The notes under the pieces are model-generated. The model did no database searches, was not told the DNA's origin, and worked only from the letters and a program-made list of their open reading frames with translations. Below, one piece after another: positions 8,614 through 36,580 of a DNA stretch of 36,580 nt (position 1 is its first letter; every line of letters begins with the position of its first letter). The stretch spans positions 1 to 36,580 of the forward strand of contig JBDRCL010000061.1 of NCBI GenBank assembly GCA_043821745.1, read 5' to 3'. The stretch comes from Methanobacteriota archaeon. Lineage in GTDB: Archaea; Hadarchaeota; Hadarchaeia; Hadarchaeales; Hadarchaeaceae. The translations under genes and the position numbers were made by a program.

Positions 8614-9153
8614 TCACTTTATTCTGCCACGAGCTCTGACGCTGGGCCTGATGCGTTCGGCACCCTTGCCCTTTGTTGCCATTCCCCTCGACTTTTTGCC
8701 CGCACGGGTCAAGCCCCTGTGGACGCGCCCTTTCTGGCTCTTGTTCGCGATCCAACCGAGCTGCGGGTCGCTGAGAATGGCCGGGTGACTGGGGTCCAGC
8801 ATTATGACCTCAAAATACTTGCGGGTCCCGTCGGCTGCGACCAAGTAAGAATTCAGCACCTCGAGGTTGGGGTACTTTCTGGCCGCTCTCTCCTCCGCGA
8901 TGAGTTGGATGTTCTTCTTCGGCACTATCTTCAAAACGCCCATGCGCTTTGGCCTTCTGCCGTGAGCCGGCCGGACCTTGCGCCGGCCACCCTTTCTCAC
9001 GCGCGCCCTCACGACGACCACGCCCTGCTTCGCCTTGTAGCCGAGCGATCTCGCCCTCTCCAGGTCGGTCGGCTTGTCGATGCGCTGAGCAGCTGAGACC
9101 TTGCGCCATTCGGCCATGCGACCTCGCATCAATTCGTTTTGTCCTACCGTCAA
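8614..9153 (-). CDS. rpl15e: 50S ribosomal protein L15e (N-terminally short, TTG start)
   Basis: ...[58 protein letters not shown]...NSYLVAADG. The frame is closed by TAG at 9177..9175. The TTG at 9153 has GGTGG 7 nt upstream. Confidence 0.9.
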
Positions 9154-14720: not shown

Positions 14721-16298
14721 ATGACAAAAATTTACGTCCCAGATACCAGCGCACTGATAGACGCTCACTTGAGCTGTCTGCTAATCAGCGGAGAACTTCA
14801 AGATTGCGAGGTGCTGTTGCCTAACCTGGTCTTCGCCGAAATCGAACATCAGGCAAAATTAGGCAAGGACTCAGGATACAGCGGCCTCGCGGAGTTGAGA
14901 AGGCTAAAGGAGCTAGCGGACCAGAACAAGGTTAAGCTCAAGCTACTTGGGAGAAGGCCCACCCCTGCGGAAATCTCAGCTGTCGAGTTTGGGACCATAG
15001 ACGCCGCGGTCCGCGAATTCGCAAGCGAGCACGGAGGGGTGCTCGTGACCGGAGATGAAGTGATGGCCGAGATGGGGCGGTTGGAAGGGTTGGAAGTCCT
15101 GTTCCTGAAACCGGTGCTGACCGGAAGGAGTCCCAAACTGCTCGAATACTTCAAGCCTGACACATTGTCCGTGCACCTCAAAGAAAAGGTGAGGCCCATG
15201 GCAAAAGTCGGGAGCCCAGAGAACTTCAAGCTTGAAGTTCTTGACGAAACCCCACTCACCGGGGAGCAACTTAGGGAGCTAGCGCACGAAGTCATTGAGC
15301 TAGCTCGGCAGGACCCCGACAGTATGGTGGAAATCGAGCGCTCGGGAGCGACAGTGGTACAGTACCGCGAGTATCGCATAGTCATCGCTCGTCCCCCGTT
15401 CAGCGATGGGTTTGAGATTACCGCCGTTCATCCGATAGTCAATGTCGGTTTGGACGACTACCGGTTGTCAGAGAAGCTCAAGGAGCGGTTGCGGGAGAGA
15501 GCCGAAGGGATACTGATCGCCGGCCCGCCTGGAGCCGGTAAGACCACTTTCGCCCAAGCGCTTGTTGAGTTCTATCGTTCGCAGGGGAAAATAGTCAAGA
15601 CCATGGAGTCCCCCCGCGACCTCCAAGTGAGCGACGAAATAACACAATATTCGGCTCTAGAAGGTGAAATGGCAAATACGGCCGATATTCTGCTCCTGGT
15701 TCGCCCAGACTACACCATCTACGACGAGCTTCGGAAGACCAGCGATTTTCAGATATTTTCCGATATGCGCCTGTCGGGCGTGGGTATGGTCGGAGTGGTG
15801 CATTCAACCAGGGCAATCGACGCCGTGCAAAGATTAATAGGACGGGTTGAGCTCGGGATGATTCCCATGATTGCCGACACTGTAATCTTCATAAAGGGGG
15901 GCCATATCAAGAGCGTCTATTCCCTTAAAACCGCCGTTAAAGTGCCCCACGGGATGACCGAAGCCGATTTGGCACGCCCGATGGTAGTGGTAACCGACTT
16001 TGAAACGGATAGCTCGGCCTACGAAATATATTCCTTCGGTGAGGAAGTAGTGGTCATGCCAGTGAAGGAAAAGGAAACCACGAAAGAGGAGCTTTGGAAA
16101 GCCCAGCTGATCAAGCAGGAAATTAGACGGCTGGTAGGGGAAGACGTCGAAGTCAAGATGCTTTCCGACACCAGCGCAATCATCGGAGCAGATGACTTTA
16201 TAATACCAAAAATCATCGGCCGAGGCGGACGCACTGTAGAGCGCTTGCAGAGAAAATTGGGAATCAGGATAGATGTACGCGGCAGGGAAATGGACTAG
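14721..16298 (+). CDS. PIN-domain / PilT-like ATPase / KH-domain protein (COG1855 family)
   Basis: N-terminal PIN (MTKIYVPDTSALID...GDEVM), Walker A LIAGPPGAGKTTFAQAL, and C-terminal KH IIGRGGRTVERLQRKLGIRIDVR. Confidence 0.85.
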   Translation: MTKIYVPDTSALIDAHLSCLLISGELQDCEVLLPNLVFAEIEHQAKLGKDSGYSGLAELRRLKELADQNKVKLKLLGRRPTPAEISAVEFGTIDAAVREFASEHGGVLVTGDEVMAEMGRLEGLEVLFLKPVLTGRSPKLLEYFKPDTLSVHLKEKVRPMAKVGSPENFKLEVLDETPLTGEQLRELAHEVIELARQDPDSMVEIERSGATVVQYREYRIVIARPPFSDGFEITAVHPIVNVGLDDYRLSEKLKERLRERAEGILIAGPPGAGKTTFAQALVEFYRSQGKIVKTMESPRDLQVSDEITQYSALEGEMANTADILLLVRPDYTIYDELRKTSDFQIFSDMRLSGVGMVGVVHSTRAIDAVQRLIGRVELGMIPMIADTVIFIKGGHIKSVYSLKTAVKVPHGMTEADLARPMVVVTDFETDSSAYEIYSFGEEVVVMPVKEKETTKEELWKAQLIKQEIRRLVGEDVEVKMLSDTSAIIGADDFIIPKIIGRGGRTVERLQRKLGIRIDVRGREMD

Positions 16299-32271: not shown

Positions 32272-32328
32272 ATGGTCAACATGGCGGCTTCGAATGATTA
32301 TAACCCGCACGAAATCGAGCTGAAGTAA
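32272..32328 (+). other. 18-codon ORF encoding a ValRS-type N-terminus (MVNMAASNDYNPHEIELK*): orphan valS 5' exon or remnant
   Basis: Own translation. YNPHEIELK matches the Y-[DN]-P-x-E-x-E-x-K(W) start of archaeal ValRS. It uses host-like GC3-rich codons and stops (TAA 32326-28) exactly where the conserved Trp should follow. Confidence 0.55.
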
Positions 32329-32483: not shown

Positions 32484-34094
32484 TTGTTGCTCTCCGTAAA
32501 TTTTTGGGATCTGCCACATCGGCGTACCTCCATTATCTTCTCTGAGGATTTTTCGCAGGTTATTCATAATACAGTGGCGAATTTGTTCGACAAAAATCTC
32601 ACCAAAGCGTCAAAAACAATTGGTATACCAAAAAGTCTTTTCTACCGCCTTGAGCAAAAAAGGCGCATTAGAATCGACAATCTTTTCAAGCTGCTAAATT
32701 TTTTAGGTGCTCGCGATTCAACATTTTCTACAAAGGCTGCCCAGAGACACTTAATTTGGATAGGACCAGCACATGGAAGAGGAATATCCAACCCTTGCTT
32801 TCCAATCGAGCTTCAGAACAATGCATTGGTGCGAACAGCCGCCAGAGCTTGTGGAGATGGGATTCTAACTAGAACTTATGGACTTCGCCATGGTTATGGA
32901 ACTATAATCTACTACGCAAAGGAGGATCCAGAACAGCTGCAAAACGCGATTGATGACGCCATCATTGCCTTTGGAGGAAATGTCCAAACATACAGGATTA
33001 ATTTCGGCAAGGACATCTACTTAGTTTACCCCACTGTCGTGCGTGATGTCTTGTTATTCGCAGGAGTGATGACAAGTCCAAAAGCAGAAAGCGAACGCGG
33101 CGTCCCGGAGTTTGTGATGAAAAGCGAAAAAGCGACTACTTGGGTTGCTTGGCTTCAACAAACGGGGGACGATGAAGGGCATGTTGTTTATCACCCGCAA
33201 CATAACCTATATGGCATCTACTGGCGTCGATCCACCGACATTACTGGACTCCTGCCTGGCATTGAGCTTAGGGCCGGGGAGCGGATTTCCATTCATATAT
33301 CATCAGACGACGTTCGGGAACACGTGGTAGGGCGATCACCGAAATTGATAGCCGATGAGCAGGGGCTTCTCAGTAGGCTCCGCATTACCTCCACAGTCAC
33401 TCCTTTGGAGATTTACCGAACTCTTAATGGAAAACTTCGGGTCAAGTGGCAACTCCGCATTAGCGGTCCTGATAACTTGATTCGATATGGTAGAAAAGTA
33501 GGGTTTCGGATTACGAGGAAATCAACCGCGCTAGCTAAAGCAATGGACCAATGCGTAAGTTACGAAAAAATTATCTTACCAATTCTTAACGACCTTCAAC
33601 AGAAACACGGCTACCTCGATGCAAGATCGGTATCAATGAGACTGGGCGGTTGCCTAGTTCCCCATTCAAACAAAACAACCATTTCCGGGTTGGTCGCTTT
33701 ACGAGAAATGTCCAAACGAGGCTATGTCCATAAAATAAGCGAGGGACGGTACATCAAAAAATTGAAGAAGTACATTCCATCAAGATACGTTATAACTAGC
33801 AAGGGAACAAGAAGGCTTAAAGAGATTTGCGACCAATTCCATTATCTGGATGAAAAGGTGGGAGGTGGTTCAGCGAATAAAGTGACAGCAGAAGTTCCGG
33901 CAGCTTACGATCCACTTGAGGCAGAACCAAAATGGCGGAAGAAGTGGAAAGAATTGGGTATTCACAGCTTCCGACGCGACGATTACGAAACGCCGACCTA
34001 TATTATCGATACCCCGCCGCCATATTCCTCGCAAGAGGGTGGAGCCGAGCGGGGAGTTCCACATGGGCACGGCGCTGAATTGGACGTACTTTGA
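32484..34094 (+). CDS. LAGLIDADG-like (double-motif) homing-endonuclease-type protein with N-terminal HTH and C-terminal winged helix; the ORF reads through into valS exon 1
   Basis: TTG 32484 has GAGG 5 nt upstream. HTH is [27 protein letters not shown]-like motifs are [14 protein letters not shown] (about 32830-32867) and [15 protein letters not shown] (about 33141-33185). Between and after them come the expected beta-strand/helix segments (...[18 protein letters not shown]). The wHTH is [18 protein letters not shown]...ITSKGTRRL. The last ~70 residues are the ValRS N-terminus plus out-of-frame read into intron 1 and exon 2. Low GC relative to its neighbours. Confidence 0.6.
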
Positions 34095-36580
34095 TATCGT
34101 CGCTCGCTATAAGCGGATGCGCGGCTTCAACGTGATGTTTCCCCAGGGATCCCCGTGAAGTGCTGTAACGGCATATTCATGGGCCTGAATGGGACTGTCA
34201 CGGGCTGCCCACCGAGGTCCAAGTGGAGAAACGCTACGGGATAAGAAAGGGCGACCTGCCGGCGGAGAAGTTCCGAGAGCTCTGCGTCAAGCTGACCAGC
34301 GAAAACATATCTCACATGCGAGAAGAGATGAACTCCTTCGGGTTTTCAATAGACTGGTCCACTGAGTACCGGACGATGGATCCGAGCTATTACGGCAAGA
34401 CCCAGCTTTCGTTCGTGCAGCTTTACAAGAAAGGGCTCATCTACAGGGGCGAGCACCCGGTCAACTGGTGCCCCCGCTGTGAGACCGCAATCGCGGACGC
34501 CGAGGTGGAGTACGGGGAGAGGAGCACCAAGCTGAACTACGTAAAGTTCAAGCTCGCCGGGGATGACGGGGCGTTGACCATTGCCACCACGCGTCCCGAG
34601 TACCTGCCGGCGTGCGTTGTGGTGGCGGTCCATCCGAACGACGAGAGGTACCGGAGATACGTCGGGGGAAAGCTCGAGGTCCCGCCATTCGGTCACGTCG
34701 TAGAGATTATAAAGGACACGGAGGTCGACCCTGGGTTCGGCACGGGAGTCGTGATGGTGTGCACATTCGGGGACAAGACCGACGTGCGCTGGGTGAAGCG
34801 CTACAAGCTGCCGGTCATCAAGCTGATCGATGAGAAGGGCGCGATGACGGAAGCCGCTGGAAAATATTCAAAGATGACGATGGAGGAGGCGCGACGCGCG
34901 ATAATCGAGGACCTGCGCGCGGCTGGATCGCTCGAAAAGCAGGAAGAGCTGCCGCAGAGCGTCGGTGTCTGCTGGCGCTGCAAGACTGTCGTCGAGATCT
35001 TGACGAAACCGCAGTGGTTCATGCGCGTGCTCGACCTAAACAAAAAAGTGGTCGAGGAGGCCAAACGCGTGAGGTGGGTACCGGACTACATGCGCACCAG
35101 ATTCGTCGACTGGACGAACTCGATGGACTGGGACTGGGTGATCTCGCGGCAGAGGATCTTTGCCACGCCGATCCCGGCCTGGTACTGCTCCAAATGCAGG
35201 GAACCGATAGTGGCTGAAGAGAAGCAGCTGCCGGTCAACCCTGCGAGGGACAAGCCGCCGGTCGAGAAATGCCAGAGCTGTGGCAACCAGAACTTCGATC
35301 CGGAACCGGACGTACTCGACACCTGGATGGACAGCTCGATAACTATCGCAGCTCATGCGGGATGGCCCGACATCGACCAACGTCTCTTCCCAGCCGACCT
35401 TCAGCCGAACGGGACGGACATCATCAGAACCTGGGACTATTACCTGATGGTCCGTCACCTCGCGCTACTGGGCAAGGCACCATACAAGACCGTGTTGGTC
35501 AACGGCATGGTGCTCGGAACCGACGGCAGGGCGATGCACAAATCGCTCGGGAATTACGTTGACAGCACAAAGGCCCGAGAGAAATACGGCGCCGATGCGC
35601 TCCGCCAGTGGGCGGCGATAGGGGCGTCGACCGGCTCGGACATACCGTTCACCTGGAAGGACGTGGAGTTCGGATACCGGTTCATGCGAAAGTTATGGAA
35701 CGCTGCCCGATTCGCCGGCCCGCATCTGAACTCAAAAGTTGCAAAGCTCGAGGTCAAAAAAATAAAGCTGACGCCCGTGGACCGCTGGCTCCTGAGCAGG
35801 CTCAACAGGCTGGTGAAGAACGTCACGGGATGGCTCGAGGACTTCCAGTTCAACCGTGCTCTCGGCGATATTCAAAACTTCGTATGGCACGAGCTCTGCG
35901 ACATGTACATCGAGGAAGTGAAGCACCGGCTTTACGCCGGCGACCGGACCACCGAAGCGGCCGCCTTCACCCTTTACCAGGCCATGCTGACTTCAGTCAA
36001 GCTCCTCGCCCCGTTCATACCTCACTTCGCCGAAGAAGTCTATCAGACGTACTTCGCCGGAGACCAGCAACTGCCGAGCGTTCACAGCTTCGGCTGGCCG
36101 GACGCCGACGAGAGCCTGATAGATGAATCCGCGGAGAAGCTCGGTGAAATTGCCAACCTTGCGATAAGCACTCTGCGGCAGTTCAAGTCCACGAGGAAGA
36201 TGGCCCTCAGCGCCGAGATACCAAAACTTGAGATCTACACGGCGAACAATGACGTCGCCAAACAGCTGAAGGAAATAAAAAATGATATCGCCGGCACCAT
36301 GCGGGTTAAAGAAGTTAAGATAATAACCAACAAGCCGGAGCTGAAAGAGCGCGTGCTCTCGGTGGAACCGAACCTGGCGAGGCTGGGTTCAAGATTGCGC
36401 GGCGACGTAAAGATCGTCACTGAGGCCCTGCGAAACGCCAAGCCGGAAGAAATCTCGAAACTTATGGGCAAGGGCAAAATGACCATAAATGAAGCAGGGA
36501 AAACCATCGAACTTTCAATCGAGGATTTGAAAATAGTCAGTGAACTGGAAAGCGAGGGTCACAAGGTCGAAGTCATCGAT
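33882..36580 (+). CDS. valS: valyl-tRNA synthetase, split by two BHB mini-introns (exons 33882..34025, 34045..34149, 34190..>36580; 3' end beyond window)
   Basis: Own three-frame reading gives (V)[47 protein letters not shown] | [35 protein letters not shown] | [18 protein letters not shown]...[21 protein letters not shown]...[16 protein letters not shown]...[12 protein letters not shown]...WFMRV...[17 protein letters not shown]...[10 protein letters not shown]...[11 protein letters not shown]...[11 protein letters not shown]... Exon 3 is an uninterrupted 797-codon frame to the window end; it is absent from the ORF track because it is edge-truncated. The start codon is uncertain (GTG 33882, or fusion to the upstream ORF). 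Confidence 0.88.
34026..34044 (+). other. 19-nt bulge-helix-bulge (BHB) intron 1 in valS
   Basis: Canonical hBHBh' geometry (see finding). Removal joins CCA UAU|CCG AGC, giving PPPY|PSGEFHMG in frame. Confidence 0.8.
34150..34189 (+). other. 40-nt bulge-helix-bulge (BHB) intron 2 in valS
   Basis: Canonical hBHBh' geometry (see finding). Removal joins CAG GGA|UGG GAC, giving FPQG|WDCHG in frame. Confidence 0.8.

Follow-up and report, generated by a model that had tools for sequence, protein, structure and literature searches.

How a valyl-tRNA synthetase (ValRS) could be produced from a gene whose reading frame is broken twice is the question raised by valS, which lies at the 3' end of the 36,580-nt stretch of archaeal DNA analysed here (the window; contig JBDRCL010000061.1 of assembly GCA_043821745.1). 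On the plus strand, the segment that we refer to as exon 1 (33882..34025) begins with a GTG start behind a Shine-Dalgarno-like GGAGGTG (33861-67) and remains open up to ...TPPPY; the protein then resumes as PSGEFHMG...FPQG in exon 2 (34045..34149), a mini-exon of 105 nt that encodes 35 aa including the HIGH-motif region, and breaks again after GGA (34147-49), the next codons in this frame being TCC CCG and the stop TGA (34156-58). Exon 3 (34190..36580), which reads WDCHGLPTE... from TGG 34190 onwards, has 797 open codons up to the end of the window and runs off it there. Each of the two breaks has a stop behind it. If the intervening 19 nt (intron 1, 34026..34044) and 40 nt (intron 2, 34150..34189, which contains the in-frame TGA and shifts the frame by +1) are deleted, a single, stop-free ValRS of 880 codons is obtained, which reads PPPY/PSGEFHMG and FPQG/WDCHG across the two junctions. 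Its best matches, at 73-81% protein identity, are the orthologs in metagenome-assembled genomes (MAGs) of Candidatus Hadarchaeum, which identifies the window as a chromosomal fragment from Hadarchaeota (Hadesarchaea). Judging from the sequence, we consider it very probable that 34150-34189 represents an intron of the bulge-helix-bulge (BHB) type in the valS coding sequence, excised by the tRNA-splicing endonuclease EndA and ligated by RtcB.

In the proposed precursor, the exon sequence UCCC-CAGG is complementary both to CCUG, with which the intron ends, and to GGGA among the first bases of exon 3, and the pairing gives a 4-bp helix between two 3-nt bulges atop a long hairpin within the intron. 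The corresponding pairs can be read directly from the sequence. The outer helix h consists of U34140-A34194, C34141-G34193, C34142-G34192 and C34143-G34191, and the central helix H of C34144-G34187, A34145-U34186, G34146-C34185 and G34147-C34184, such that both 5' strands (h, 34140-43; H, 34144-47) lie in exon 2, while their partners are found at 34191-94, in exon 3, and at 34184-87. The bulges are G34148-A34149-U34150 and A34188-A34189-U34190, and the predicted cleavages fall after A34149 and after A34189, the rule for BHB cleavage positions being that of Marck & Grosjean 2003, as cited in PMC5829648. EndA would cut at these two positions, and RtcB would join the resulting 2',3'-cyclic phosphate to the 5'-OH, giving CAG GGA/UGG GAC and thereby restoring FPQG/WDCHG; the excised intron would probably be circularised by RtcB as well. 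We infer these steps from the motif and from the pathway established for tRNA introns and for the cbf5 pre-mRNA. With intron 1 removed in addition, valS would be a three-exon gene with a 105-nt middle exon, and the predicted junctions of the mature mRNA would be ...TTTCCCCAGGGA joined to TGGGACTG... and ...CCGCCATAT joined to CCGAGCGG....

When the region 34130-34205 is folded with RNAfold, the BHB motif of intron 2 is present in the minimum free energy (MFE) structure, at -34.4 kcal/mol (z = -3.64), and none of 200 shuffled sequences is as stable. Both valS motifs are also found in the MFE and centroid structures of their 231-nt context. For intron 2, the 4-bp outer helix is lengthened by further exon-exon pairs and the inner part is a long hairpin, while intron 1 has CCAU/GUGG as its central helix, the bulges AUU and AGC, and a short inner stem, CCUC-GCAA-GAGG, closed by a GCAA loop.

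To establish how widely the inserts occur, we collected related loci in three ways. A protein-based genome scan kept 80 loci, down to 55% identity, and among these L012 was found to carry inserts of 16 and 30 nt at the two sites, and L033 inserts of 19 and 41 nt. A metagenome scan, in which the exon/BHB DNA pattern itself fixed helices h and H, gave 17 loci, namely 16 valS alleles and one chance match (L090). Retrieval by means of the open reading frame (ORF) upstream of valS, described below, returned L101, L110/111 and L114-117, all with intron 2 and including one new 41-nt variant. Overall, an insert is present at the identical site in 15 or more distinct alleles, which come from independent assemblies of Hadarchaeota, and the lengths of intron 2 are 30, 37, 38, 40, 41 and 42 nt. 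That the 40-nt segment is a chimeric artefact of sequencing or assembly, as might be suspected of a window from a metagenome-type assembly, is the remotest of the alternatives, since related inserts recur at this site in independent JGI, ENA, NCBI and Logan assemblies in six lengths and with many substitutions.

Folded individually, all 14 distinct variants of intron 2 adopt the arrangement h4-H4-B3-hairpin-B3, with two 3-nt bulges on opposite strands around a 4-bp helix, and in 12 of them the 3/4/3 geometry is exact in the MFE structure. The inner hairpin is conserved as a structure: 99.4% of its alignment cells are paired, compared to 32-51% with slid partners, with double changes in three pairs and one-sided G-U/A-U/G-C changes in eight. 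The abundance of G-U pairs would fit a structure formed by the sense-strand RNA, because the opposite strand would have C-A mismatches in their place. Intron 1, of 19 or 16 nt, keeps its BHB in 10 distinct variants, and in its flanks a synonymous base of a Thr codon in exon 1 covaries with a synonymous base of a Gly codon in exon 2 (ACC...GGG vs ACU...GGA). The insert-free state is equally precise. Intron 1 is exactly absent, at CCATAC/CCGAGC, in L084, L095, L097 and L101, and most Hadarchaeota orthologs (L001-L011, L013, L014, L034, L054) are free of inserts and have FPQG/WDCHG contiguous with variable synonymous codons, their sequence at the site, ...CAR GGN/TGG GAY..., being that of the predicted junction.

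These results bear out most of a preliminary description of this DNA. The frame break, the stop and the 797-codon exon 3 that it had reported agree with the sequence in every coordinate, all the base pairs that it listed for the outer, central and inner helices are present together with the bulges, and the excision that it had deduced is exact, yielding the very junction of the insert-free orthologs. Its 105-nt mini-exon with the HIGH region and its 19-nt first intron are real, as seen from the fold, the open frame, the variants and the exact absences. Of the checks that it had suggested, the folding recovers the motif, and the comparison of orthologs finds the insert shared by some alleles, exactly missing in others, and supported by covariation of the hairpin. 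The homing-endonuclease gene upstream of valS, to which we return below, had escaped that description.

If the inserts were instead disabling indels in a dead or decaying valS, one would expect the exons to have lost their constraint. The ratio of nonsynonymous to synonymous substitution rates (dN/dS) between intron-bearing alleles is 0.02-0.07 for exon 2 and ~0.1 for exons 1 and 2 together, and 0.06-0.08 for exon 3, where it was computable in 3 of 9 pairs, synonymous sites being saturated in the others. Such values point to strong purifying selection on the exons. On contigs that extend far enough, exon 3 has an open frame of 797-815 codons, the inserts are retained at identical sites, and with the fold conserved, by more than 15 distinct alleles, and the L012 and L033 genomes have one valS locus each among the 80 kept loci, with no second copy there to take over. 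The twice-broken frame, with a stop after each break, is what a pseudogene would look like, and automated annotation can be read in the same way: in L101, gene callers split valS into two products of 83 aa and 814 aa, and at L110 (3551-6050; GCA_046761105.1, JBHIFM010000029.1), which has both introns and an intact start of exon 3, no valS protein is recorded downstream of the ORF, the gene presumably having been left uncalled or flagged as a frameshifted pseudogene. Against near-saturated synonymous sites and the low dN/dS in all exons, we find a dead gene hardly credible.

A functional gene could also be obtained if the insert were retained in the mRNA and handled during translation, either by bypassing of the T4 gene 60 type or by production of separate exon 1-2 and exon 3 polypeptides. 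The GGA before the insert, with a hairpin and a stop codon after it, does resemble gene 60, but the sole downstream GGA (34192-94) is out of frame and landing there would delete the invariant Trp, and at intron 1 a matching pair of codons for take-off and landing is absent. As for separate polypeptides, the 30-, 41- and 42-nt alleles ending in GGGGCCTGCA contain an intron ATG in frame with exon 3 (MGPAWDCHG...), which gene callers use; the same ATG is, however, not in the frame of exon 3 if the intron has 37, 38 or 40 nt, or if it has 41 nt and GGGCCTG (L089, L110), and the window has no ATG, GTG or TTG between the in-frame TAA (34166-68) and TGG 34190. An exon-2 peptide would moreover need a start codon of its own, and none is present. 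Since the conserved 3-nt/4-bp/3-nt geometry would serve no purpose under either version, we regard handling in translation as very unlikely. The variants of intron 2 that were read through (30, 37, 40 and 42 nt) all place a stop in the exon-2 frame, and lengths not divisible by three shift the frame as well; unspliced RNA would therefore be unable to yield ValRS, and splicing would be obligatory.

As for the host, Hadesarchaea have been described to possess an EndA of the alpha4 type, in which an L3 loop is present, and to have numerous disrupted tRNA genes (PMC5829648). Among the loci retrieved here, tRNA-Ala(CGC) carries a mini-insert of 12-15 nt after position 37 (37/38) in L083 (4400-4488), L034 (4586-4673), L010 (3663-3750), L003 (3446-3536) and L005 (4203-4293), and is uninterrupted in L086 (8370-8445), so that this insert, too, is present or absent between lineages. 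The interrupted genes are reported as 'tRNA-???' by ARAGORN in bacterial mode. Neither EndA nor RtcB is encoded in the window, the rest of the source genome not having been searched for either. Rfam at gathering thresholds and ARAGORN gave no match in the window; to our knowledge, BHB introns are without a curated family.

Several observations weigh against the BHB-intron reading or reduce its support. In the MFE structure of the window allele, the 5' bulge of intron 2 is drawn with 4 nt, because four Cs (34151-54) face three Gs (34181-83); the canonical 3-nt register has the identical helix with the spare C at 34154, and leaves the cut site unmoved, since this is set by helix H. Intron 1 deviates more, with a U-G pair in H and just 2 bp and a bulged A before its outer helix resumes. 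The invariance of h and H is partly imposed by the search, and independent support for it comes only from the alleles retrieved by protein or by ORF. No protein corresponding to the spliced form of the window allele was found among assembled proteins; a search with the N-terminal 203 aa of spliced ValRS had intron-less relatives of 82% identity as its best matches and was uninformative. Finally, the motif as such is common: a loose scan for hBHBh' arrangements found 263 in the window and 218-276 in ten Markov-simulated sequences. The window thus being indistinguishable from simulated sequence, we dropped the motif-only scan as evidence, and the argument of the preliminary description that two such inserts were very unlikely to arise by chance is too strong, since the bare motif is as frequent as expected by chance. 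What is improbable is a motif at the exact junction. A stricter scan found 46 motifs on the plus strand, and the expectation for one falling on the single pair of start and length that restores the protein is ~46/(36580 x 109), or ~1e-5 for each specified junction, a coincidence that occurs twice within 165 nt of valS. The evidence thus rests on the motif being at the protein-restoring junction and on its conservation in orthologs.

This leaves the question of how two such introns came to reside in valS. Immediately upstream, on the plus strand at 32484..33881, lies a 466-aa ORF with an HTH at its N-terminal end, two LAGLIDADG motifs and a winged helix at its C-terminal end. This free-standing homolog of LAGLIDADG homing endonucleases precedes intron 1 by ~140 nt and intron 2 by ~270 nt. 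Its 2-kb stretch has the lowest GC content in the window (45%, compared to 59% for the next 2 kb, which contain valS). The ORF of the window alone had no match in Pfam and only weak matches in NCBIfam, which we take to lie in the intein-bearing DnaB and aIF2. Relatives are numerous, with 210 in the representative library, and 28 of 50 that were sampled match the Pfam family LAGLIDADG_3. The two motifs, around D125 and E231, each have the predicted catalytic acidic residue ahead of their last Gly; they are conserved and align with the endonuclease motifs of inteins in PDB: the family profile matches the V-ATPase intein 7qsu (7e-9), PI-PkoII (4e-6) and PI-PfuI (1.6e-4), these matches coming from the 50-member profile A3, while the profile of close homologs, A2, yielded nothing useful. 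We conclude from these alignments that the ORF is probably a member of the LAGLIDADG family, with predicted nuclease activity.

The position of the ORF can be read from what surrounds it. Upstream, at 32281..32328 on the plus strand, the window retains a degenerate remnant of the original 5' end of valS, MAASNDYNPHEIELK followed by a stop, and remnants of greater length (16-31 codons), in every case behind a TATA-like box, precede the ORF in L012, L087, L093 and L097. The functional downstream copy of valS has a Shine-Dalgarno box, and no TATA-like box as in the remnants. This arrangement indicates that the ORF was inserted within the 5' coding region of valS, together with a replacement copy of that region. 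In the window, there is no stop codon between ORF and valS, while other alleles have stops and a Shine-Dalgarno box there. The possibility that the ORF is an intein in frame with valS was considered and rejected, given these stops and the fact that ValRS starts only after the ORF. As a side observation, the spliced mRNA of the window (32484-34094 region) could also encode a fusion of ORF and ValRS of more than 1,340 aa; without splicing, intron 1 shifts the frame, and the ORF comes to its end at 34094. In L012 (3897-4550), and also in L086, the old valS promoter is followed by a gene for a HAD-like hydrolase that opens with valS codons 1-16 (MEVSKDYDPLEVEPKW), which by its structure appears to be a gene fusion made by insertion of the cassette considered below. 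Two distant relatives of the ORF, P0012 and P0016 (L098 4001-5272 and L106 1914-3140), are convergent to class I aminoacyl-tRNA synthetase (aaRS) genes, with 3' overlaps of 17-29 nt, one of them LeuRS-like (937 aa), the other ValRS-sized (880 aa). From this placement, the ORF family may be specialised on aaRS loci.

Across alleles, ORF and introns tend to occur together. The ORF, or a 3' stub of it (55-120 nt), accompanies ~16 of the 19 distinct alleles that have introns. It is absent from all 17 Hadarchaeota alleles without introns that were checked, although three of these (L013, L018 and L054) have little upstream sequence. The stubs, at ~3558-3630 in L094, ~580-700 in L085 and 946-1000 in L033, lie upstream of intron-bearing valS, and therefore suggest repeated loss of the nuclease gene after establishment. 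In two cases, exchange of valS segments can be seen. L089, which has the ORF and both introns, is ~99% identical to the intron-less L003 just 3' of intron 2, and 89-98% identical over the remainder of valS; 5' of intron 2, in exons 1-2, the identity is only ~70-85%, and the ORF is a 1.5-kb insertion. Correspondingly, L089 nests with the intron-less alleles in trees of exon 3, but with the intron-bearing ones in trees of exons 1-2. Both comparisons indicate that the L089 lineage imported the ORF with both introns, by a recombination whose breakpoint lies exactly at intron 2. The second case is a conversion patch of ~200 nt over exon 1 and intron 1, by which L012 and L092 differ while being otherwise identical.

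As a potential explanation, we considered that the upstream LAGLIDADG gene and the replacement copy of the valS 5' end make up a cassette. The nuclease would cut the conserved valS in naive Hadarchaeota genomes, and repair would copy the nuclease gene plus the replacement 5' end. The ORF-less introns of 16-42 nt would split the targets of the nuclease in the replacement copy, and would themselves be removed by the tRNA-splicing machinery of the host. From the comparison of alleles, a functional link of this kind between introns and endonuclease gene, as a recombination-mobile cassette, is tentative and in our estimate somewhat less than even. Several results speak against it. Both introns occur without any trace of the ORF in L083 and in L091/L096, and clear recombinants are limited to L089 and the L092 patch, most alleles being compatible with vertical descent. 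The AF2 model of the ORF has a pLDDT of 66.6 and is poor over residues 110-215, and a Foldseek search of PDB with this model had no significant match, only weak ones to I-CvuI, I-CreI derivatives and PI-SceI (E ~0.1). A further expectation, that the 5' segment would be younger than exon 3 in all intron-bearing alleles, is unsupported, mean identities being 78.5% and 79.2%.

The introns could be just as real, and their tie to the ORF one of physical linkage only. In that case, introns and ORF would have a single origin in one Hadarchaeota sub-lineage and, being less than 400 nt apart, would recombine together; the ORF would not target valS, and the introns would give valS no protection. This account comes close to an even call. 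In exon 3, too, most of the intron-bearing alleles fall into one group of relatives, being closer to one another (79%) than to the others (72%), the persistence of introns without the ORF in L083 and L091 is readily accommodated, and the sequence heterology at the insert can alone halt a conversion tract at intron 2. What linkage does not by itself account for is that the ORF sits inside the 5' coding region of valS with a replacement copy of that region, that retrieval based on the ORF returned an intron-bearing valS every time, and that its distant relatives likewise adjoin class I aaRS genes. The introns, furthermore, interrupt ValRS at two motifs of high conservation, one of them the HIGH region and the other FPQGWDCHG (as judged from the Hadarchaeota alignment and general knowledge), and conserved motifs are typical homing sites according to PMC2814812.

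In the remainder of the window, valS has as neighbours archaeal core genes, among them those for exosome subunits, proteasome alpha, Kae1, ribosomal proteins and SerRS. None of the other ORFs examined in the window looked split, and apparent overlaps were due to extension of ORFs to the first start codon. On the minus strand at 8614-9153, an ORF for ribosomal protein L15e matches its Pfam profile only from position 19; it is without the conserved N-terminal ~15 residues, the gap to the upstream gene is just 16 nt, and a regular-expression search for the L15e N-terminal motif across the window found no matching exon elsewhere. At 14721-16298, a 525-aa ORF has weak matches to PIN, P-loop ATPase (T2SSE-like) and KH domains, a combination similar to the PIN-ATPase-KH arrangement of archaea and with no relation to the valS introns.

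BHB introns in archaeal rRNA can encode LAGLIDADG homing endonucleases, such as I-DmoI and I-PorI; the pairing of a BHB intron with a LAGLIDADG nuclease is a known combination. The valS inserts share with archaeal tRNA and rRNA introns the motif and the presumed enzymes, and their lengths of 16-42 nt resemble those of the 12-15-nt mini-inserts in tRNA; they differ in that the host RNA is an mRNA and in that the nuclease gene is outside the intron, in front of the valS start codon. In this latter respect they resemble collaborative homing in phages (PMC3984707), where a free-standing endonuclease gene likewise lies beside a conserved gene with a small, ORF-less intron, an arrangement that the window shares here with more than 12 alleles, and where flanking markers move along, as in the comparison of L089 with L003. 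In contrast to the phage systems, the valS introns are protein-spliced BHB introns rather than group I ribozymes, and reside in an archaeal chromosome. By analogy, one could speculate that a single selfish cassette comprises the two mini-introns and the LAGLIDADG gene, and that it is the archaeal equivalent of collaborative homing in phages, with BHB introns spliced by the host; we lean slightly against this possibility.

Endonuclease-spliced introns in archaeal mRNA are documented for essentially two genes, cbf5 and HVO_1309. In the HVO_1309 mRNA of Haloferax volcanii, a BHB is cut by EndA (PMC7714728; PMC10485636), processing of the kind that is predicted for valS. The intron in the pre-mRNA of cbf5, encoding pseudouridine synthase, is known from Crenarchaeota (Watanabe 2002; Yoshinari 2006; Yokobori 2009, PMC2738675), and its motif has been described as relaxed and linked to the (alpha-beta)2 form of EndA (PMC10485636). 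Like cbf5, valS is a protein-coding gene with a small endonuclease-type intron, BHB-like boundaries, a patchy pattern of gain and loss, and presumed removal by EndA and a ligase. Unlike cbf5 (Desulfurococcales and Sulfolobales), the host is valS of Hadarchaeota and the site is another one, such that the introns do not belong to the cbf5 family; there are two of them, around a 105-nt exon, with canonical hBHBh' motifs and an associated homing-endonuclease gene. While splicing was demonstrated experimentally for cbf5, for valS it is predicted from the sequence. In the literature, we found no report of BHB introns in valS, in any aaRS gene, or in protein genes of Hadarchaeota, and a 2023 review considered that more archaeal mRNA introns probably await discovery (PMC10485636).

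The valS case thus adds an essential aminoacyl-tRNA synthetase in a different phylum as host, with two canonical BHB introns around an internal exon of 105 nt. The variants of 30-42 nt provide a natural series for the substrate rules of EndA on mRNA, and the split or uncalled valS genes imply that such genes can seem broken or missing in these MAGs. With the nuclease gene, the valS 5' duplications and a recombination breakpoint at intron 2, the old question of the gain and movement of BHB introns becomes testable, candidate donor and recipient sequences being known. If the cassette reading is true, it would show how introns of the endonuclease type enter protein-coding genes and spread between lineages.

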